This document shows positions 1 to 20,427 of a stretch of DNA of 20,624 nucleotides, in pieces. The number at the start of each line of letters is the position of its first letter. Position 1 is the stretch's first letter. Location of the stretch: IMG/VR virus record IMGVR_UViG_2563366839_000008. One strand, written 5' to 3'. Source of the DNA: a virus (lineage: Duplodnaviria > Heunggongvirae > Uroviricota > Caudoviricetes). Under the pieces are notes generated by a model. The model ran no database searches, was not told the DNA's origin, and worked only from the letters and a program-made list of their open reading frames with translations. A program made the translations under genes and the position numbers.

Positions 1-1131
1 TCAAATGACCAGTTTTTTCCATTCCTTACCGCGTGCGTCGTTGTAAATATCGGTCATTTTTTGATTCGAATGGCCCAGCAAAATTTTGGTATCAACCCCC
101 TGCTCTCTGAACAATCGCTCTGATAAAGATCTCTGCTCATGGAAAGAGGGTGGGGTGCCATTAGCACGCCAGTTGTAATCCACAGAATCCCGGGCTTTTT
201 TAAATGCAACGGTTAATGTTGCTGGCTTAACCATCCCGCCGCGCTTAGCTGTCCCTTTCGCGTGATGGTGGTGCAATAGCCACGGACTAAGAACGCAATC
301 GCGGCAGGATGACACTACATCATCCAGGGTGAGATTTAATTTATCGCAACGCAGAGCCAGAGGGATGGCAATCCGGGTTCCTGTTTTTTGCTGTTCGACA
401 TGAAGATAACCATCCCGGATATCCGAAAATTGCATTTTGCAAATATCTGAAAGGCGCTGGCCTGTCATCAGTGCCAGCAGCATACCGCGCTGTAAAAAGT
501 AACCATCCTTTTCCGCTGCGTTATAAATCATCATCCACTCATCAAAAGTCAGTCGCTGTCTTGATATCCGCACCTGCGGTTTTTTTGCCGATTCTGCAGG
601 GTTAAAGCCTGGCGGGACATCGCCCGTTTGCTGAGCTTCCCGGAAAACATCGATCAGTACTTTCCTGAAAATTTGTCCCATTCTGTTATGTCCTCTGGCC
701 TTGTACTCTTCCAGTACTGATACCACATCTTTTACGGTTATGGCATCTAACGGTCTGGTGCCAAAACGTTCATCAAATACCCTGAGAGGGGCCGCTTTCT
801 GTTTCAGCGTGTTGAGTTTGATCTCGCCGTTTTCATATCTTTCCTGTTGAATTTTTCTGTAATTATTCAGAAAAATGGTAACGGTTGATGAACCGCCGGT
901 ATCACTAATAATTTTCTCCTGCAGACTGAGCATTTGTTCCATTTGCTGCCGGGCAAGACGGCTGTTCGCTTCTGCTGCAATAGTTTCTGCCAGTTTCTGG
1001 TCAATACTGCCGAGACCGTGATTTTTGCCTGTTATGGGATGCCTGTAACGCCAGTAAACTTTGTTATTTCTTTTGTCAAAATACGGAGATAATCCCGGAA
1101 CATCGGTTTTATATTTTCGCGGGCGCGCCAT
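1..1131 (-). CDS. int: Lambda-family tyrosine recombinase (phage integrase), complete 376 aa; stop codon at 1-3
   Basis: Full-length ORF. C-terminus has the HxxR box (FHEQRSLSERL), LLGH and the catalytic Tyr in TDIYNDARG, as in lambda Int; box I TGQRLSDI is upstream. First gene at the left edge, so the att site should lie just outside the window. Confidence 0.9.
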   Translation of the reverse strand: MARPRKYKTDVPGLSPYFDKRNNKVYWRYRHPITGKNHGLGSIDQKLAETIAAEANSRLARQQMEQMLSLQEKIISDTGGSSTVTIFLNNYRKIQQERYENGEIKLNTLKQKAAPLRVFDERFGTRPLDAITVKDVVSVLEEYKARGHNRMGQIFRKVLIDVFREAQQTGDVPPGFNPAESAKKPQVRISRQRLTFDEWMMIYNAAEKDGYFLQRGMLLALMTGQRLSDICKMQFSDIRDGYLHVEQQKTGTRIAIPLALRCDKLNLTLDDVVSSCRDCVLSPWLLHHHHAKGTAKRGGMVKPATLTVAFKKARDSVDYNWRANGTPPSFHEQRSLSERLFREQGVDTKILLGHSNQKMTDIYNDARGKEWKKLVI

Positions 1132-1421: not shown

Positions 1422-3893
1422 TTAAAAATCAGCCTGATTCGGGATCAGTTTTTGCCAGATAACTGAAACGTATTTTGCCTGGTAACGGGCGTCATCAAGT
1501 GCATTATGGCGCTCACCTTCGAATGGAATAGCCGTTCTGGCATCGAAGTCTATGGCTTTCCCCAGCTCAACGATTGTGCGTACATCGCGATCGTTGTAGT
1601 AACGCCACGGGCAGGGGATCCCCTGCCGTTCGTATGAACGGCGCAAAATCGTGTTGTCGAAGTTGGCTCCATTTCCCCAGACCTGAACAAAAAATTCGCC
1701 GGAGTTTTCGTCGATAAATTCCCGCAATTGCAGCAGTGCATCATCTAACGGGATTTCATCGGTCAGAATGGCAGATTGCGCCTCCCGTGATTGCTTAAGC
1801 CACCATTTAATGGTGCCACGATCAATGACTCCGCCAGCAGTATCCATATCGATGGTCTTACTAAATTCCGGCCCCATATCTCCGGTTTGCGGATCGAAAA
1901 ATATTGCACCTATTGAGATAAGCGGGGCATCGGGATTTTTTCCCATGGTTTCAAGGTTGATCATCATGTGGTGCCACATTCTGCTGGTGGATGTGATAAC
2001 GTGATGACCGTTCATCGCAATTAAGGGATCTGCCGTCTCGCCAGTTTCACTATCGCTGGCGTGATCCTGAGCGCTACCAGCATTCTCCTTGTGTGGATGT
2101 TCAGCGCCTTCCATTTCCTTCGGATCATTTTCCTGAACTTCAACCTGATTCTCTTCATCGAATGTTTCCTGGTATGTTGCGTCGCCCATTACCGCGCCAC
2201 AATCAGGGCAGTTGCCACCACCGCTTTGACCGCAGGCGGTGCAGACTTTTTCCGGTTCCTGTTGCGCTACTGGCTCAGGTTGTTTCGTTTCTGGCTCGTT
2301 TTGTAACGCATTTGGGCTGTTTTGTTCCGCTTTCTGGCCGTTCTGTTCCGTTTCTTGTTGGTTCTGATTCACTGAATCGCGGGTTTCAATCCCCTTCACC
2401 CATTTCGGATCATTCGGGTCGCTAATCCCTGCAACAAATTCACCACGTGATACAGCAAGCAACTTATTGGCGTCAGGCTGGCTGATATTGGCTGCCTGCA
2501 TAATTTTGTTTACTTCGTCAGCGGTAACTTTTACCGGCTCTGGTTGTGCGATCGTGTCAGATGCACCAGTATTTTGTTGTGAACCTGAGTATGTACTGTT
2601 TTTGCGGGCGAAATATTCTTCTTTCGTGATTTCAGTAGCCCCGGCAGCCAGCGCCTTATCCAGACCAGAAAGTTTGTTTGCGCGACCGTATTTTTCGCCA
2701 TCCTTGTCGGTGAAGAGGAAGTAGAACGGCCCTTCACGCTCTACAGATGGTTCGACTTCCACTTTGCATTCGGTTTTTTCGTTGTCCGGAATTGCCGTTT
2801 CCACTGCATCAGTTTCTGGTACTGGCGACGAGAGAGTATCAGTTGCGCTCTGATTTCTTCCTTCATCTTCAAACACGCCCTTTGTAGTCAGGTATTCAGT
2901 AATGTATTTGTTCAGTGCCACAGGGTCTTTGTGAATGTCGATCGGACGTTCACGGACAAGGCCAAAAATAGTCTGGCGGTCGTAGCGAAGGGCATCAGGC
3001 TGTTTGCGCATTGATGCCGAGATACGCTTCCAGTCTTCGCGGTCGTTGTCGATAACTTCATTTTTTGCCCAGCGATGGATGCTGCCGTCAATGTTTCCGG
3101 CATCCACATCACCAGGCCAGAGAGCGTAGGCCAGTTCGTCATCCAGTGTTTTCCATGTCTGCTTGTATTCGCGATGAATGGCAGCAATGACCGGGCTGAT
3201 TTTTCCTGTTGAATTTTCACTGTGCTGTTGATTGGTTCTGGCGCGGGCGAGATCAACAACAGACGTGTATTTTCCGGTTTCCTTGCGTTCACCTTCGCGA
3301 CGTTTTTTCCAGATGCGCATCTCTGCCTGAATTTCGGGCCATTTGGCACCAGGCTTACATTTATGCTTAACCCACCCGATGGCATGCAGCTTAAGCTCCG
3401 GATACATGGCGTTAACTTCTGGCATTTTCATCAACGCTTCAACGATATGTCCGTCGAATGTTGCCATGTCTTCCTGCAACAATTCCTGTGCGCTAATAAC
3501 CATATCAACGGTGATGTTTTCACATGTGTCGAACTTAACCATGACAGCGTTCTGTACTTCAGGGGCCAGCTTGTCAAAAGTGACGTTCATCGGATCGGAT
3601 TCAGTCTCAACCGGGACAAAAGAAGCAGACTCCTCATCCCAGCGGTTTTCCTGCATATATTCAGCATCCCATGAATCGAGGGCAGGGCGGGGTATGCCAG
3701 GTTTATCCTCGCAGACAATAAATTTATAAGCGCAGTCCTGAGCAGCCGGATAATGTTCCAGGAACTGCCAGTGAAATTTTGCTCGAGCACGGCGTTCGTC
3801 GCCAACTTCAATGGCTGTGGCTACAGCCACAGCGCCTTCTTCCCTTGTTGCCAGTTCGTCAGGAATAGCGGCGCAAATAAAGACTTTACTCAT
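1422..3893 (-). CDS. Large early-left protein (YdfE / exodeoxyribonuclease VIII-like), 823 aa, with Q/E-rich linker, CxxC..CxxC zinc ribbon and C-terminal DEDDh-like 3'-5' exonuclease domain
   Basis: Long uninterrupted ORF. C-terminal motifs WGNGANFDNTIL (Exo II-like) and HNALDDARYQAKY (Exo III-like H-x-A-x-x-D-A); internal CTACG...CPDCG zinc ribbon. Sits at the ydfE position after dicB-ydfD. Function inferred from motifs and synteny. Confidence 0.8.
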   Translation of the reverse strand: MSKVFICAAIPDELATREEGAVAVATAIEVGDERRARAKFHWQFLEHYPAAQDCAYKFIVCEDKPGIPRPALDSWDAEYMQENRWDEESASFVPVETESDPMNVTFDKLAPEVQNAVMVKFDTCENITVDMVISAQELLQEDMATFDGHIVEALMKMPEVNAMYPELKLHAIGWVKHKCKPGAKWPEIQAEMRIWKKRREGERKETGKYTSVVDLARARTNQQHSENSTGKISPVIAAIHREYKQTWKTLDDELAYALWPGDVDAGNIDGSIHRWAKNEVIDNDREDWKRISASMRKQPDALRYDRQTIFGLVRERPIDIHKDPVALNKYITEYLTTKGVFEDEGRNQSATDTLSSPVPETDAVETAIPDNEKTECKVEVEPSVEREGPFYFLFTDKDGEKYGRANKLSGLDKALAAGATEITKEEYFARKNSTYSGSQQNTGASDTIAQPEPVKVTADEVNKIMQAANISQPDANKLLAVSRGEFVAGISDPNDPKWVKGIETRDSVNQNQQETEQNGQKAEQNSPNALQNEPETKQPEPVAQQEPEKVCTACGQSGGGNCPDCGAVMGDATYQETFDEENQVEVQENDPKEMEGAEHPHKENAGSAQDHASDSETGETADPLIAMNGHHVITSTSRMWHHMMINLETMGKNPDAPLISIGAIFFDPQTGDMGPEFSKTIDMDTAGGVIDRGTIKWWLKQSREAQSAILTDEIPLDDALLQLREFIDENSGEFFVQVWGNGANFDNTILRRSYERQGIPCPWRYYNDRDVRTIVELGKAIDFDARTAIPFEGERHNALDDARYQAKYVSVIWQKLIPNQADF

Positions 3894-4537: not shown

Positions 4538-4590
4538 GGGCGGCAGAGCAGTCACGGAGTAAAACTGATACCGCCAAACGTCACCAGAAA
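4538..4590 (-). ncRNA. dicF: DicF small RNA (53 nt; antisense regulator of ftsZ and other mRNAs)
   Basis: Minus strand reads TTTCTGGTGACGTTTGGCGGTATCAGTTTTACTCCGTGACTGCTCTGCCGCCC followed by TTTTT, matching recalled DicF including its 3' terminator hairpin (GGCGG/CCGCC). Upstream of dicB as in the Qin dicB operon. Confidence 0.85.
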
Positions 4591-11478: not shown

Positions 11479-11689
11479 AAACGGTTTGCGGGAAAAGGAG
11501 AGTTAAGTAGAATTGCAGCGGGTGCTTGAGGCTATCTGTCTCAGGCATGAACACCAAAAGGCAGATAGAGAAAAGCCCCAGTTAACATTACGCGTCCGGC
11601 AAGACGCTTAACATTAATCTGAGGCCATATCTATGCTCTACACACGTAGGTTAGCCTCTTACGTGCCGAAAGGCAAGGAGAAGCAGGCT

Positions 11690-11845
11690 ATGAAGCAGCA
11701 AAAGGCGATGCTAATCGCCCTGATCGTCATCTGTTTAACCGTCATTGTGACGGCACTGGTAACGAGGAAAGACCTCTGCGAGGTACGAATCCGAACCGGC
11801 CAGACGGAGGTCGCTGTCTTCACAGCTTACGAACCTGAGGAGTAA
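11690..11845 (+). CDS. hokD: Hok/Gef-family type I toxin (HokD/RelF-like), 51 aa
   Basis: Translation MKQQKAMLIALIVICLTVIVTALVTRKDLCEVRIRTGQTEVAVFTAYEPEE matches recalled HokD; SD AAGGAG 8 nt upstream. Structured leader at 11480-11689 and a 3' hairpin at 11853-11877. Confidence 0.85.
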   Translation: MKQQKAMLIALIVICLTVIVTALVTRKDLCEVRIRTGQTEVAVFTAYEPEE

Positions 11846-15470: not shown

Positions 15471-16223
15471 ATGAACCTTGAAGCCTTACCGAAATATTAC
15501 TCCCCAAAATCTCCAAAATTGAGCGATGACGCACCGGCGACAGGCTCTGGTGGTTTAACAATTACGGATGTAATGGCTGCGCAGGGGATGGTGCAGTCGA
15601 AAGCACCGCTTGGGTTTGCCTTATTCCTGGCAAAAGTTGGTGTTCAGGATCCTCAGTTTGCGATTGAAGGTCTGCTCAATTACGCGATGGCACTGGATAA
15701 CCCGACATTGAACAAATTGAGTGAAGAAACCCGGTTACAGATCATCCCTTACCTTGTGAATTTTGCCTTTGCTGATTATTCCAGGTCTGCGGCAAGTAAG
15801 GCTCGCTGTGAGCATTGTGCTGGTACTGGATTTCATAATGTATTGCGCGAAGTGGTGAAACACTCCAGAAGCGGGGAATCTGTTATCAAGGAAGAGTGGG
15901 TGAAGGAACTGTGTCAGCATTGTCATGGTAAGGGAGAAGTCAGCACAGCGTGCAGAGGGTGTAAGGGTAAAGGTATTGTCCTGGATGAAAAAAGAACCCG
16001 GCTTCATGGCACGCCTGTTTATAAGGTTTGTGGGCGTTGCAATGGAAACCGGTTTAGCCGTTTACCAACCACACTGGCGCGGCTTCATGTCCAGAAGCTG
16101 GTACCAGACCTGACGGATTATCAGTGGTACAAAGGATATGCAGATGTCATTGATAAACTGGTTACAAAGTGCTGGCAGGAAGAAGCATATGCAGAGATAC
16201 AATTGAGAAAGGTGACAAGATAA
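15471..16223 (+). CDS. Late-gene antitermination protein Q (phage 21/82 QuuQ-type), 250 aa
   Basis: SD GGAGAA upstream. Cys-rich zinc-binding region (CEHCAGTG...CQHCHGKGE...CRGCKGKG...CGRCNG). Followed by a promoter, a short leader and an intrinsic terminator, the classic PR'-qut-tR' layout. Confidence 0.8.
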   Translation: MNLEALPKYYSPKSPKLSDDAPATGSGGLTITDVMAAQGMVQSKAPLGFALFLAKVGVQDPQFAIEGLLNYAMALDNPTLNKLSEETRLQIIPYLVNFAFADYSRSAASKARCEHCAGTGFHNVLREVVKHSRSGESVIKEEWVKELCQHCHGKGEVSTACRGCKGKGIVLDEKRTRLHGTPVYKVCGRCNGNRFSRLPTTLARLHVQKLVPDLTDYQWYKGYADVIDKLVTKCWQEEAYAEIQLRKVTR

Positions 16224-16253: not shown

Positions 16254-16354
16254 CTTGCGTTTTTCAAAAAATATGGATAAGATTTTCACAACGATGGGCT
16301 TTGTATGTCTACCGTTGATAAGATTTAAGAACCCGCCACTGAGCGGGTTTTTTT
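16254..16354 (+). promoter_or_regulatory. Putative late promoter PR' with qut region and tR' intrinsic terminator
   Basis: Candidate -35 TTGCGT (16256-16261) and -10 TAAGAT (about 16278-16283); terminator hairpin ACCCGC-CACTGA-GCGGGT plus seven T's at 16331-16354, roughly 50 nt downstream. Confidence 0.5.
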
Positions 16355-16476
16355 GTACCTGTAAACTTGGTGCAGTACAGTAAACACGCTGGTGGTCGTG
16401 AATACTGACTTTTTATCTTGCTGGCTTTTTAGACAAGAGTTATTGGTATGTCATGTTAACCAGAAGGGAAAAAGAC

Positions 16477-16680
16477 ATGCTAAAACAGCAAGATATGACA
16501 GAAACCGCCGCCGCAGTCCTTCATTTCTTACCTGCTGACAAGTGGGTAACGCCACGCATGATGACGAGAACTACCGGAGTAAGCGAAGCCCGGTGCCAGT
16601 TAATACTGACTCAGTTAGTTCTGGCGGGGCTGGCGAAGGATAACGGCGGGTACGGGAATAAATTCAGACGCTGCCAGTAA
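16477..16680 (+). CDS. Hypothetical small protein, 67 aa (first ORF downstream of tR')
   Basis: ATG at 16477 with SD GAAGGGA; the track ORF begins at 16453. Possible small helical DNA-binding protein; no confident assignment. Confidence 0.45.
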   Translation: MLKQQDMTETAAAVLHFLPADKWVTPRMMTRTTGVSEARCQLILTQLVLAGLAKDNGGYGNKFRRCQ

Positions 16681-16830
16681 TGGCGGTTTCCTGCTGTGAA
16701 AATGGGCGGCTGGTGGGTGTTGGTAGCACCTGCCAGCCATTCGCTCATGCTTACTGGTCACAAGCGAACCACGGCCCACTGCTTTAGCGCAAAAGCAGAG
16801 TGAGCCTACCAGAGTTACGCTTACTGATCC

Positions 16831-17892
16831 ATGAAAAATACTGTAAAAATAAACAGTGTTGATTTAATCAACGCTGATTGCCTGCATTTTATTCAGTCCC
16901 TGCCTGATGATTCCATTGACCTGATTGTTACCGATCCGCCGTACTTCAAGGTGAAACCCAACGGCTGGGACAATCAGTGGAAAGGGGACGAAGATTACCT
17001 TAAGTGGCTGGACCACTGTCTGGCCCAGTTCTGGCGGGTGTTAAAACCTGCCGGAAGCCTTTACCTGTTCTGTGGGCATCGCCTGGCATCTGATATTGAG
17101 ATCATGATGCGTGAACGTTTCAACGTGCTTAACCATATCATCTGGGCGAAGCCGTCCGGACGTTGGAATGGGTGTAATAAAGAAAGTCTGCGCGCATATT
17201 TTCCTGCCACAGAGCGCGTTCTGTTTGCTGAACATTACCAGGGGCCATATCGCGGCAAAAGTGACGGCTATGTAGCAAAAGAAAGGGAACTCAAACAGCA
17301 CATAATGGCACCGCTGATATCGTATTTCAGGGATGCTCGTGCCGAACTGGGTATAACGGCAAAACAAATTGCCGAAGCCACAGGTAAGAAAAATATGGTT
17401 TCCCACTGGTTTGGTGCCAGTCAGTGGCAGTTGCCGAATGAGGCTGACTACCGGAAGTTACAGGCACTGTTTTCCCGTATAGCGGCAGAGAAGTTTCAGG
17501 AACAACAACTGGAACAACCACACCACCAGTTGGTGGCATCTTATGATTCACTGAATCGCAAATATTCTGAATTGCTGGATGAGTTTAAATCTCTCCGGCG
17601 CTATTTCTCCGTATCAGTCTCCGTGCCTTATACCGATGTCTGGATGCATAAACCCGTTCAGTTCTACCCGGGTAAACATCCGTGTGAGAAACCGGCGGAT
17701 ATGCTCAGGCAAATAATCAATGCCAGTAGTCGACCCGGCGATCTGGTTGCTGATTTCTTTATGGGATCCGGTTCCACAATAAAAGCAGCAATGGCGCTGG
17801 GGCGTCGGGCGTTAGGTGTTGAGCTTGAGACAGAGCGGTTTAATCAGACCATCCAGGAAATCAGTATGTTATCAGCAAATACAATTTTGTGA
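16831..17892 (+). CDS. Orphan phage DNA methyltransferase (amino-MTase, beta-class: DPPY motif IV N-terminal, FxGxG motif I C-terminal)
   Basis: Motif IV LIVTDPPY near the N-terminus and motif I DFFMGSGST near the C-terminus; internal HTH-like segment GITAKQIAEATGKK. No adjacent restriction endonuclease gene. Weak SD. Confidence 0.85.
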   Translation: MKNTVKINSVDLINADCLHFIQSLPDDSIDLIVTDPPYFKVKPNGWDNQWKGDEDYLKWLDHCLAQFWRVLKPAGSLYLFCGHRLASDIEIMMRERFNVLNHIIWAKPSGRWNGCNKESLRAYFPATERVLFAEHYQGPYRGKSDGYVAKERELKQHIMAPLISYFRDARAELGITAKQIAEATGKKNMVSHWFGASQWQLPNEADYRKLQALFSRIAAEKFQEQQLEQPHHQLVASYDSLNRKYSELLDEFKSLRRYFSVSVSVPYTDVWMHKPVQFYPGKHPCEKPADMLRQIINASSRPGDLVADFFMGSGSTIKAAMALGRRALGVELETERFNQTIQEISMLSANTIL

Positions 17893-18134
17893 ATTAATTC
17901 AATTATTGGTGGGATGTCTGTGCCGTATAATGATTACAGATACAGTGTATCCTGCAATGCAGCAGGGCTGATGTGGTGGGTTGTACATAGCCTGCAAAGG
18001 ATTGGCTTCATTAATTCATCGTTGATACAAGCGAGTCACGGTTGACCACGCCAACGGCTCATCGGTAAAAATCCGACACCGTGTCTTCTTAACTCACTTA
18101 TTGTTTCCACCCATGTTTTTGGATACCTGCTGTA

Positions 18135-18173
18135 GCTGTCAGATTAGCGCGATAATCTGACAGCTTTTTTTTT
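18135..18173 (+). terminator. Strong Rho-independent terminator
   Basis: GCTGTCAGATTAGCGCGATAATCTGACAGC followed by nine T's. Confidence 0.7.
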
Positions 18174-18464
18174 ACAACGAATCCTTCTGATCTGCTTTTG
18201 CGGGGCTTTTTTGTATCCGCTCCATGCCCGGCGTATAAGCGGAGGTTGGTCAGTTTTCTAAAAATTGAAATACCTCACAATTCAGCCAGTTAATGGTTGT
18301 TTGTCTGGCGAAGAGTTTGTAAATAAAAAAACGCATGGTGAATCCCCCTAAGCGGCGGGGCGAATCAGCAGTCAGTTCTGGGATAATCGCGGGTTCGTAT
18401 GCTGATGCCGGACTCACCGGGAGGCACCCGGCACCATGCATCATGGTCATCCCCTTGTATGATA

Positions 18465-18488
18465 CCCCTCTCCGGAGGGGTATTTTTT
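18465..18488 (+). terminator. Rho-independent terminator
   Basis: CCCCTCTCCGGAGGGG hairpin followed by TATTTTTT. Confidence 0.55.
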
Positions 18489-18920
18489 GGATAAAAAAGC
18501 CCGCGCTGGGAGGCACGGGCGGCAAGGAATAAAACGTGAAGAAATTTTCACAGGCGCATAATAATCCGATGTTGCCAGATTTTGCAACTGCATCATCTGG
18601 TTATTATGTGAGCTGGAAAATCAGATTCTGTATGGACTGAAGCCATGCTGTTATTTAGGGCCAAAGAGCTGGCTTTTTCCCGCCTTCTCTCCAGTAACGA
18701 TTAATGAGAAAAGAATGAAATGCTTTTCCTGGGGAGGAGGGCAGTAGAAAAAAGAACCCGCCAGCAAAAATATGGGGGATGAACAGCTTTTGCTACTCAG
18801 GTTGCTGGCGGGTATGGTTCTTCATGAAATAAGAATGTTACGCGGTATTTTTAATGAAAATGATAATTATTGTCAATTGGTTGTGCGTATTTTTTCATAC
18901 ATGACTGGTAAAGGTGATTC

Positions 18921-18952
18921 AGGCCATCAGAGTTTTGCTGATGGCCTTTTTT
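18921..18952 (+). terminator. Rho-independent terminator immediately upstream of the holin gene
   Basis: AGGCCATCAGAGTTTTGCTGATGGCCT followed by TTTTTT. Confidence 0.6.
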
Positions 18953-18985
18953 CTTTCCGGTAGCACAGGTCTGTTGGGGCGGGAT

Positions 18986-19201
18986 ATGTATCAGATGGAA
19001 AAAATATCAACAGGCATTGCCTACGGCACCTCCGCAGGCAGTGCTGGCTACTGGTTTTTACAATGGCTTGATCAGGTTAGTCCGTCTCAGTGGGCTGCGA
19101 TTGGTGTACTGGGAAGTCTGGTTCTGGGCTTTCTGACTTATCTGACGAATCTGTACTTCAAAATCAGAGAAGACAGAAGAAAGGCTGCGAGAGGAGAGTA
19201 A
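18986..19201 (+). CDS. Class II holin (phage 21 S21-type pinholin) with dual-start motif
   Basis: Translation [71 protein letters not shown]. Two in-frame ATGs (18986, 18995), as in the S21 holin/antiholin pair. Upstream of a SAR endolysin. Confidence 0.85.
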
Positions 19202-19205
19202 TATA

Positions 19206-19550
19206 ATGGTCCAAAACTATGAAATGATTGTGAAAGGGATCCGCAATTTTGAGAATAAAGTTACGGTAACTTTAGCATTACAGGACAAAGAACGCTTTGA
19301 CGGTGAAATTTTTGACCTGGACATCTCGCTGGACCGTGTTGAAGGTGCCGCGCTGGAGTTTTATGAGGCAGCAGCCAGAAGGAGCATCAGACAGGTCTTC
19401 CTGGATGTTGCTGCCGGGTTATGTGGAGGGGATGAGCAGTCGCCGGAAAAGCGCCCCATAATTTTAGAGGCGCAGAGTGTGTGGATAACCTACAAAGGAA
19501 AACTGCCGGGAAGAATTACTGGTTCACTGAAGACTCCGCCGAAATGGTAA
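19206..19550 (+). CDS. ydfR: YdfR-like protein (DUF1327), 114 aa, between holin and endolysin
   Basis: SD GAGGAG upstream of the ATG at 19206; same position as ydfR between essQ and rrrQ in Qin. Confidence 0.6.
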   Translation: MVQNYEMIVKGIRNFENKVTVTLALQDKERFDGEIFDLDISLDRVEGAALEFYEAAARRSIRQVFLDVAAGLCGGDEQSPEKRPIILEAQSVWITYKGKLPGRITGSLKTPPKW

Positions 19551-19893: not shown

Positions 19894-20427
19894 ATGAACG
19901 CAAAAATCAGATACGGCCTGTCGGCTGCCGTTCTGGCACTGATTGCCGTCGGTGCGCCTGCGCCTGATATTCTCGACCAGTTTCTGGATGAAAAAGAAGG
20001 TAACCACACAACGGCATACCGCGATGGTTCCGGCATCTGGACCATCTGTCGGGGTGCCACGGTGGTGGATGGAAAACCCGTTGTTCCCGGTATGAAACTG
20101 TCGAAGGAAAAATGCGACCAGGTTAACGCCATTGAACGGGATAAGGCGCTGGCATGGGTGGAGCGCAATATTAAAGTGCCACTGACCGAACCACAGAAAG
20201 CGGGTATCGCGTCATTTTGTCCCTATAACATTGGCCCCGGTAAGTGTTTCCCGTCGACGTTTTATAAGCGGCTGAATGCCGGTGATCGTAAAGGTGCATG
20301 CGAGGCGATTCGCTGGTGGATAAAAGATGGTGGGCGCGATTGCCGCATACGTTCAAATAACTGCTATGGACAGGTTATTCGTCGTGACCAGGAAAGCGCA
20401 TTAGCCTGTTGGGGGATAGATCAGTGA
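19894..20427 (+). CDS. SAR endolysin (T4-lysozyme-like glycoside hydrolase family 24; RrrD/RrrQ-like)
   Basis: N-terminal Gly/Ala-rich signal-anchor-release segment [15 protein letters not shown]; catalytic E...D...T triad region [22 protein letters not shown]. Follows the pinholin and precedes Rz. Confidence 0.9.

Follow-up and report, generated by a model that had tools for sequence, protein, structure and literature searches.

The stretch of phage DNA analyzed here (the window; 20,624 nucleotides, IMG/VR record IMGVR_UViG_2563366839_000008) carries a DNA methyltransferase gene between the Q antiterminator gene and a set of lysis genes, which raises the question of what this enzyme modifies and at which stage of the phage life cycle it would do so. 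This DNA comes from an E. coli lambdoid prophage, of which it covers the left portion, from the integrase through the lysis genes. Its first feature is a lambda-type integrase gene (1-1131, minus strand), followed in order by the DicF RNA, a CI-like repressor, hok/sok, an HTH/IrrE-like regulator and a DUF968/HNH protein; the last of these, located upstream of the Q antiterminator gene, is a common nin-region gene of such prophages. No tRNA genes were found in the window by ARAGORN.

Identity and domain structure of the methyltransferase

The methyltransferase is encoded by an intact ORF (16831-17892, plus strand, stop included) that starts with ATG and comprises 353 codons (353 aa); no Shine-Dalgarno sequence precedes the start codon. 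Residues 29-340 match the Pfam family N6_N4_Mtase (PF01555, E = 4.6e-42). The catalytic motif IV, DPPY, was located at residues 35-38 (16933-16944, plus strand) and is invariant in 44 homologues, and the SAM-binding motif I, FMGSG (F-x-G-x-G), was located at residues 310-314 (17758-17772, plus strand), of which F310, G312, S313 and G314 are invariant in the same set. Since motif IV is N-terminal to motif I, the protein belongs to the beta class of amino-methyltransferases, as the initial annotation of this DNA had proposed. All catalytic motifs are invariant, and the ORF represents a genuine, intact methyltransferase gene of a phage. All NCBIfam matches of the protein are below threshold (the best one has 110 bits against a cut-off of 292, and CcrM has 67.6 bits against a cut-off of 830); thus, no curated equivalog names this methyltransferase.

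A BLASTP comparison placed the protein in the M.EcoGII family of beta-class N6-adenine DNA methyltransferases. It aligns with M.EcoGII over the full length with 281 identities in 348 columns (81%, E = 0), 67 substitutions and two single-residue gaps; the M.EcoGII sequence was machine-read from Supplementary Table S1 of PMC11551740 with a few OCR errors, and this identity is approximate to about 1%. The protein is also 89% identical to Anc291, a reconstructed ancestor of the M.EcoGII family, and 69% identical to SUPREM/Anc284, both of which have been purified and found to be largely non-sequence-specific (PMC11551740). M.EcoGII itself is an orphan beta-class enzyme of 349 aa from a prophage of the O104:H4 strain C227-11, and it has no sequence requirement other than the target adenine (Murray et al. 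2018, PMC5778455). Neither M.EcoGII nor M.EcoGI is expressed in the native host; M.EcoGII is silent in the lysogen, toxic or deleterious when expressed, and has been proposed to counter restriction (PMC5778455; PMC12707154). Judged by sequence, the window gene is an orthologue of M.EcoGII and a member of an already characterized family, not a novel one. Its identity to three tested enzymes reported to be non-specific suggests that it would methylate adenine in any context, and a search for its target motif would, for an M.EcoGII orthologue, most likely find none.

This gene is widespread. By megablast, 1266 of 5426 complete E. coli genomes carry it, at least 12 of them with a 100% identical copy that is annotated as 'DNA-methyltransferase'. 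Phages mEp460, Ayreon, cdtI and SfV (orf48) have genes that are 98-99% identical at the nucleotide level over nt 1-1019, and the gene of Stx2c-converting phages is 85% identical. The protein search yielded 3032 relatives, the best 120 of which are about 350 aa in length, at least 75% identical, and distributed among Escherichia, Citrobacter, Klebsiella, Salmonella, Enterobacter, Cronobacter, Erwinia and other genera. The finding is of interest mainly for annotation: the enterobacterial prophage genes that bear the label 'site-specific DNA-methyltransferase' but are orthologues of the non-specific M.EcoGII number in the thousands, and methylome studies should therefore expect no motif from them.

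The target-recognition domain, with its helix-turn-helix (HTH), was defined by domain comparison at 17308-17541 (plus strand), based on the helices of an AlphaFold2 model and the published model of M.EcoGII; it is 77% identical to the M.EcoGII domain, with 18 differences in 78 residues. The AlphaFold2 model was built from 44 sequences and has a moderate mean pLDDT of 70.8 (58-85 in the target-recognition domain). It contains helices at residues 146-173, 177-184, 190-194, 204-223 and 231-254 in the recognition region, and this helical region of residues 146-254 fits the published layout of M.EcoGII, in which a four-helix bundle (160-237) containing the HTH is accompanied by a charged interdomain linker (PMC11551740). 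The charged two-helix linker is kept in the window protein as the modeled helix 231-254. The HTH would consist of helix 177-184, the turn GKKNM and helix 190-194. The peptide GITAKQIAEATGKK (residues 174-187, nt 17350-17391), which the initial annotation had singled out as an unusual and possibly inserted HTH-like segment, makes the first HTH helix and the turn in this model. Neither part of that description holds. The HTH is nearly invariant across Enterobacterales and has been published for M.EcoGII (PMC11551740), and residues G174, I180, T184, K186, K187, M189 and S191-F194 of its core are invariant in the 44 homologues from many genera. Moreover, it occupies, family-wide, the standard position of the beta-class recognition domain between the catalytic and SAM-binding motifs. 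The HTH is thus real, and it is the putative DNA-binding element of the enzyme. Divergence from M.EcoGII is greatest in the recognition domain and linker (72-77% identical, versus 89% for the N-terminal core).

A PDB sequence search found no solved structure of M.EcoGII or its recognition domain. Matches obtained by phmmer against PDB were restricted to the core, the best being M.BceJIV (4e-24, residues 9-111 and 282-334), and Foldseek matched the core fold to CcrM (8.5e-14), M.BceJIV, M.RsrI and M.MboII while leaving the recognition domain unmatched. CcrM, M.BceJIV, M.RsrI and M1.MboII thus share with the window protein the Rossmann core and the motif order (Foldseek 1e-13 to 1e-11; phmmer E 4e-24 to 4e-15), but the similarity is confined to residues of approximately 9-154 and 271-346, and those enzymes are site-specific. 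A regulatory orphan of the CcrM/Dam type was considered and rejected, since the similarity to CcrM covers the core only (best 282-339) and the gene is located in a prophage late region rather than in a chromosomal context. In summary of its novelty, the methyltransferase is an ordinary, already known finding, and its HTH recognition domain has already been described.

Late-operon position, synteny and mosaicism

The Q antiterminator gene (15471-16223, plus strand; Pfam Antiterm PF03589, E 6.7e-53) is annotated as antitermination protein in RefSeq, is nearly identical to the Q of Stx2c phages, and has the same protein encoded in L003. Immediately after it, reading of the sequence and alignment with lambda revealed a pR'-like late promoter (16255-16298, plus strand), composed of a -35 element TTGCGT (16255-16260), a 17-nt spacer, a -10 element TAAGAT (16278-16283) and, 6 nt further, AACGAT-GGG (16290-16298). 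The arrangement TTGCGT-17-TAAGAT-6-AACGATGGG is in exact register with pR' of lambda (NC_001416), TTGACT-17-TAAATT-6-AACGATGGG. Both mEp460 and an Stx2c phage have nearly the same promoter unit after Q. In lambda, Q loads onto RNA polymerase at AACGAT, a sigma70-dependent pause signal.

A tR'-like intrinsic terminator (16327-16354, plus strand), a 10-bp hairpin followed by U7, is located approximately 40-65 nt past the predicted transcription start and is also conserved in mEp460 and the Stx2c phage. Its folding energy is -24.7 kcal/mol (z = -3.8), and none of 200 shuffled sequences folded as well. By analogy with tR', transcripts in the lysogen would end here as a short RNA of about 65 nt, and a short terminated RNA has been described for Stx phages (PMC7547250). 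A generic promoter scan returned 6 sites against 6.0 expected and did not pick up the pR'-like promoter and the terminator.

Between this unit and the methyltransferase is an ORF of 67 aa (16477-16680, plus strand; phrog_331, PHROG E 4.6e-26), for which no match was found in Pfam or NCBIfam. In 78 of 79 IMG/VR loci it precedes the methyltransferase at a distance of approximately 150 nt, and its counterparts in Salmonella and Klebsiella have 49-58% amino acid identity. Downstream of the methyltransferase, a strong intrinsic terminator (18134-18165, plus strand; 13-bp stem followed by T9) starts a non-coding spacer module of about 1 kb that precedes the holin gene and contains the sRNA STnc100 (Rfam RF02076; 18304-18492, plus strand; 114.5 bits versus a gathering score of 47). 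With these terminators and the sRNA module between methyltransferase and holin, the transcript architecture is unlike that of most relatives. Lysis genes are then encoded on the same strand: a P21-type holin (18914-19201), YdfR/DUF1327 (19206-19550) and a lysozyme (19894-20427), all identified by Pfam and RefSeq annotation.

The description of the gene as an orphan was borne out by its neighbors (DUF968/HNH protein, Q, 67-aa ORF, sRNA, holin, YdfR and lysozyme), which include no partner endonuclease, and no restriction endonuclease-like gene was found within approximately 4 kb on either side. A component of a Type II restriction-modification system was thus rejected, given the absence of a cognate endonuclease gene beside the methyltransferase. 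A second methyltransferase, annotated upstream in strain AR_0086, was also sought in the window; none was found, and the window differs from that strain there.

The order of genes around the methyltransferase was examined in relatives. In mEp460, the holin gene begins 4 nt past the methyltransferase stop codon, and in the Stx2c phage, stx2cA and stx2cB come after the methyltransferase. Across 80 IMG/VR loci the arrangement is DUF968 - Q - (lipoprotein) - small ORF - methyltransferase - holin - lysozyme. In Klebsiella prophages, a lambda-type Q (PF06530) precedes the cassette, and a type-3 holin and a GH108 endolysin follow it. In Erwinia prophages, the preceding gene is a PF03589 Q, and the cassette is followed by a type-3 holin, a lysozyme and a terminase. 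The holins of both belong to a family other than that of the window, and the Klebsiella Q is likewise different. Since the position of the cassette is kept while Q and lysis genes are swapped, a late-operon gene is the best explanation. The late-operon placement proposed at the outset is consistent with the promoter, pause and terminator unit after Q and with the methyltransferase and lysis genes following on the same strand. We also considered that pR' might instead lie in the 1-kb gap before the holin, in which case the methyltransferase would be expressed early; this was rejected because the two genes directly adjoin each other in mEp460 and most relatives and because the lambda-like promoter is placed directly after Q. 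A literature search returned nothing specific on late expression of M.EcoGII-type genes.

In phages mEp460, cdtI, SfV, Ayreon and the Stx2c phages, as in the window, the gene is downstream of Q and is preceded by the small ORF and a leader; they differ from the window in that the holin (or stx2c) comes directly after the gene, whereas the window has the terminator/STnc100 module of about 1 kb inserted, and in the last 14 or so codons of the methyltransferase. Similarity to mEp460 stops at nt 1019 of the gene, leaving a private C-terminal tail in the window allele. Codons 1-134 are 99% identical to the Stx2c allele with a dS of 0.02, and the remainder has a dS of more than 1.4, which indicates intragenic recombination. 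M.EcoGII shares with the window protein the N-terminal DPPY, the C-terminal FxGxG, the central HTH recognition domain, the charged linker, a comparable length (349 versus 353 aa) and the status of an orphan prophage gene. It differs in the C-terminal tail, which in the window (…ISMLSANTIL) was made by a recombination junction, and in the N-terminal third, which in the window is of a different allelic lineage and identical to the Stx2c-phage allele. The dN/dS of the methyltransferase is 0.16 versus the Stx2c-phage allele, a comparison in which synonymous divergence is saturated, and 0.19 versus the mEp460 allele, and the frame is under purifying selection.

A conserved leader RNA upstream of the methyltransferase

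The 150 nt that separate the small ORF from the methyltransferase AUG are strikingly conserved. They contain a structured leader RNA of approximately 138 nt (16696-16833, plus strand), which abuts this AUG. By blastn, it was found in 58 of 80 genomes of different species with 72-92% nucleotide identity; the methyltransferases of the same 80 genomes are 62-92% identical, and leader identity is often above protein identity. A peptide-coding role was rejected, as the frame from a conserved ATGGGCG is 3-53 aa long and shifts between loci. An Rfam search of 16400-16900 at E <= 10 returned chance-level matches only, none of them for the leader, and no description of this RNA was found in a literature search.

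To describe its structure, 57 distinct leaders were aligned with MAFFT based on sequence only. RNAalifold gave part of the structure, and the helices were completed by hand from mutual information and then control-tested. With window position 16688 as 1, the leader contains helices P0 (16-20:87-91), P1 (21-32:40-51), P2 (53-58:76-81) and P3 (92-98:105-111), of which P0, P1 and P2 form a three-way junction with highly conserved junction nucleotides. In P0-P3, 82% of the alignment cells are paired, versus 28-53% after shifting the partners by 1-3 columns (slid controls), and 15 pairs have changes on both sides, versus 2-6 in these controls. None of 500 shuffles reached the observed value, although such shuffle statistics are inflated by the relatedness of the sequences. 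The P2 pair 55:79, for example, varies among C-G, A-U, U-A and U-G. The 3' strand and loop of P2 can instead pair with the last 15 nt ahead of the AUG, giving an alternative helix (69-73:138-142 plus 75-79:131-135) that excludes P2. This helix is 88% paired, versus 19-43% in slid controls, and has G-C to A-U exchanges at two positions.

A covariance model of the leader gave exactly one hit at each locus, and the hit invariably extended up to the ATG of the methyltransferase. The model detected 63 of 84 homologue loci at E <= 1e-11 and two more weakly, and also matched the window, mEp460 and the Stx2c phage; no confident matches were obtained elsewhere in 750 kb. Erwinia lacks the leader, which in Photorhabdus and Xenorhabdus is weak or missing. 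With its covariation across Enterobacterales and its two mutually exclusive folds, this RNA is a candidate for an undescribed translational riboswitch or protein-responsive switch, a reading that we advance tentatively, as somewhat short of probable. It could gate the toxic non-specific methyltransferase, e.g., in response to SAM/SAH, the methyltransferase itself or the 67-aa protein. The leader is the only element described here that may be new. If real, such a switch would explain control of a toxic enzyme beyond transcriptional antitermination, would represent a new class of cis-regulatory RNA in well-studied bacteria, and might aid heterologous expression of the commercially used M.EcoGII.

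Proposed role and alternative explanations

We propose that the window gene is an M.EcoGII orthologue whose Q-dependent late expression leads to context-independent N6-adenine methylation of progeny DNA as an anti-restriction measure, and we assign this reading a probability of roughly three in four. In the lysogen, constitutive transcripts from pR' would end at tR' about 60 nt downstream, leaving the methyltransferase off; from the position of pR' and tR' and from the M.EcoGII prototype, the gene is probably silent in this state. Upon induction, Q would render RNA polymerase terminator-resistant, and readthrough past tR' would place the lysis genes on one transcript with the small ORF, the leader and the methyltransferase that precede them. 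The HTH recognition domain and the charged linker are expected to bind nucleic acid without reading sequence, such that adenines in any context would be modified in replicating and packaging phage DNA, and progeny would be partly shielded in the next host from the many restriction systems of Types I, II and III that m6A blocks. We infer the non-specificity, lysogen silence, toxicity and anti-restriction role of the window enzyme from the characterized prototype. As for the protection of progeny DNA that the initial annotation had suggested, the same role has been proposed for M.EcoGII, and for the window allele it would apply by analogy; our literature search found no demonstration of an anti-restriction role for any member of the M.EcoGII family. 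The extent of methylation is a further consideration, as a plasmid heavily methylated by M.EcoGII transforms E. coli 10^4-10^5-fold worse (PMC5778455). Full hypermethylation would thus harm the phage, and the level in vivo is presumably limited.

Other readings were also considered. If the divergence from M.EcoGII, concentrated in the recognition domain and linker, had given the enzyme a defined target, the gene would encode a sequence-specific orphan, serving the phage as a Dam- or CcrM-type anti-restriction enzyme or regulator. The recognition domain and linker are indeed the parts that have changed most, and 19% overall divergence, including 18 residues in the recognition domain, makes some sequence preference possible. 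In addition, M.PflMI, which by published description belongs to the same sequence cluster and has a similar predicted fold and HTH recognition domain, is site-specific (PMC11551740), and databases label homologues 'site-specific DNA-methyltransferase', although this label is automatic only. However, M.EcoGII, Anc291 and SUPREM are all reported to be non-specific, the HTH residues are invariant throughout the family, and the charged two-helix linker that M.PflMI is described as lacking (PMC11551740) is kept in the window protein, so that we regard a sequence-specific enzyme as unlikely. A main substrate other than double-stranded DNA, namely RNA or ssDNA/hybrids, with the enzyme marking phage or host transcripts late in infection, appears more doubtful still. 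M.EcoGII does act on ssDNA, RNA and RNA:DNA hybrids in vitro (PMC5778455), but its initial rate is about 100-fold lower on RNA (0.12 versus 11.12 on DNA; PMC11551740). Furthermore, residue 179 of the window allele is Q, as in M.EcoGII; the substitution E179Q lowers the RNA activity of SUPREM 3.4-fold, and a DNA-preferring enzyme is accordingly to be expected. The conserved site just before the lysis and packaging genes also suits DNA modification.

The least probable of the readings that we considered, and a very improbable one, is that the gene serves no function at present, being an inactive or decaying passenger in a cryptic prophage. M.EcoGII and M.EcoGI are unexpressed natively, M.EcoGII being located on a cryptic prophage (PMC5778455), and the missing Shine-Dalgarno sequence in the window points in the same direction. 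Against this, the ORF is intact with invariant catalytic motifs, its dN/dS is low even with saturated synonymous divergence, the upstream leader is conserved and covarying, and the gene is carried by the viable phages mEp460, SfV, cdtI and Ayreon.

Late, context-independent methylation by an M.EcoGII orthologue would resemble the working of Mom of phage Mu and of other late-expressed DNA modification functions by which phages counter restriction; Mom represents a late anti-restriction modification that is likewise silent in the lysogen, toxic if mis-expressed, under tight late control and broadly protective against restriction. The protein and its chemistry are unrelated; Mom is not known to carry out SAM-dependent N6-methylation. 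In the Stx2c phage examined here, the methyltransferase is located between Q and stx2c, and it would thus belong to the same Q-dependent unit as the toxin genes.

Leader RNA and small ORF upstream of the methyltransferase gene

The methyltransferase AUG in this window has no Shine-Dalgarno sequence and is adjoined by a structured leader RNA of approximately 138 nt (16696-16833, plus strand), which we consider a candidate cis-regulatory switch RNA, so far undescribed. Nucleotide identity of the leader is 72-92% across Enterobacterales, and covariation was observed in its helices P0-P3. An alternative helix is also possible, whose pairing would sequester the start region. Each locus contains a single copy, which ends at its 3' side with the ATG every time, and a search of Rfam gave zero matches for the leader.

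In addition, a 67-aa ORF assigned to phrog_331 by PHROG (16477-16680, plus strand), for which Pfam gave no match, was found about 150 nt upstream of the methyltransferase gene in 78 of 79 IMG/VR loci. The ORF likewise occurs in Salmonella, Klebsiella and many further genera, where its amino acid identity to a query from E. coli, Klebsiella or Salmonella (three variants were used) is 44-100%, and it is absent from some leader-bearing loci. Its product may act together with the methyltransferase as a partner, or may regulate it.

Mosaic structure and occurrence in Stx2c phages

Comparison with the alleles of Stx2c phage PV98-693 and phage mEp460 indicates that the methyltransferase gene (16831-17892) is an intragenic mosaic. 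Codons 1-134 share 99% identity with the Stx2c-phage allele (dS 0.02), and dS exceeds 1.4 after codon 134. Identity to the mEp460 gene stops at nt 1019, leaving the window allele with a C-terminal tail private to it. In Stx2c-converting phages, the M.EcoGII-type methyltransferase shares a transcription unit with the toxin genes: as in PV98-693 (locus L003, 4001-6665), it is situated between Q and stx2cA/stx2cB. It is unannotated in the GenBank records of those phages.

Late promoter and the module preceding the holin gene

A late promoter unit and, after it, a terminator were recognized at 16255-16354 (plus strand); the -35, -10 and AACGAT pause signal of the unit all align in register with lambda pR'. 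Despite this alignment, Q of the window belongs to PF03589, whereas Klebsiella Q is annotated as PF06530 (Phage_antitermQ). The terminator downstream of the promoter would release an RNA of approximately 65 nt in a lysogen, and the StxS-type RNA of Stx phages is an analog of this predicted product.

Between the methyltransferase and holin genes lies a non-coding module of about 1 kb (17893-18913), absent from most relatives. Strong terminators are located in it at 18134-18165 (with T9) and at 18191-18204. It also contains the sRNA STnc100 (18304-18492, 114.5 bits), which has a separate terminator of its own, and one more terminator lies on the minus strand (18520-18499). Expression of the lysis genes must require Q-dependent read-through past every plus-strand terminator of the module.

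Other methyltransferases and RNAs

The Klebsiella prophages with the M.EcoGII-type gene (L087 and L088) have an additional methyltransferase, belonging to the MT-A70 family, shortly before Q (2441-3085), and a 'phage N-6-adenine-methyltransferase' is annotated in the nin region of E. coli AR_0086 (L001, 1-92). The window contains neither of these. Rfam matches above the gathering score were obtained in the window for the sok antitoxin RNA (11520-11695, plus strand, 117 bits) and the DicF sRNA (4538-4589, minus strand, 76.7 bits).
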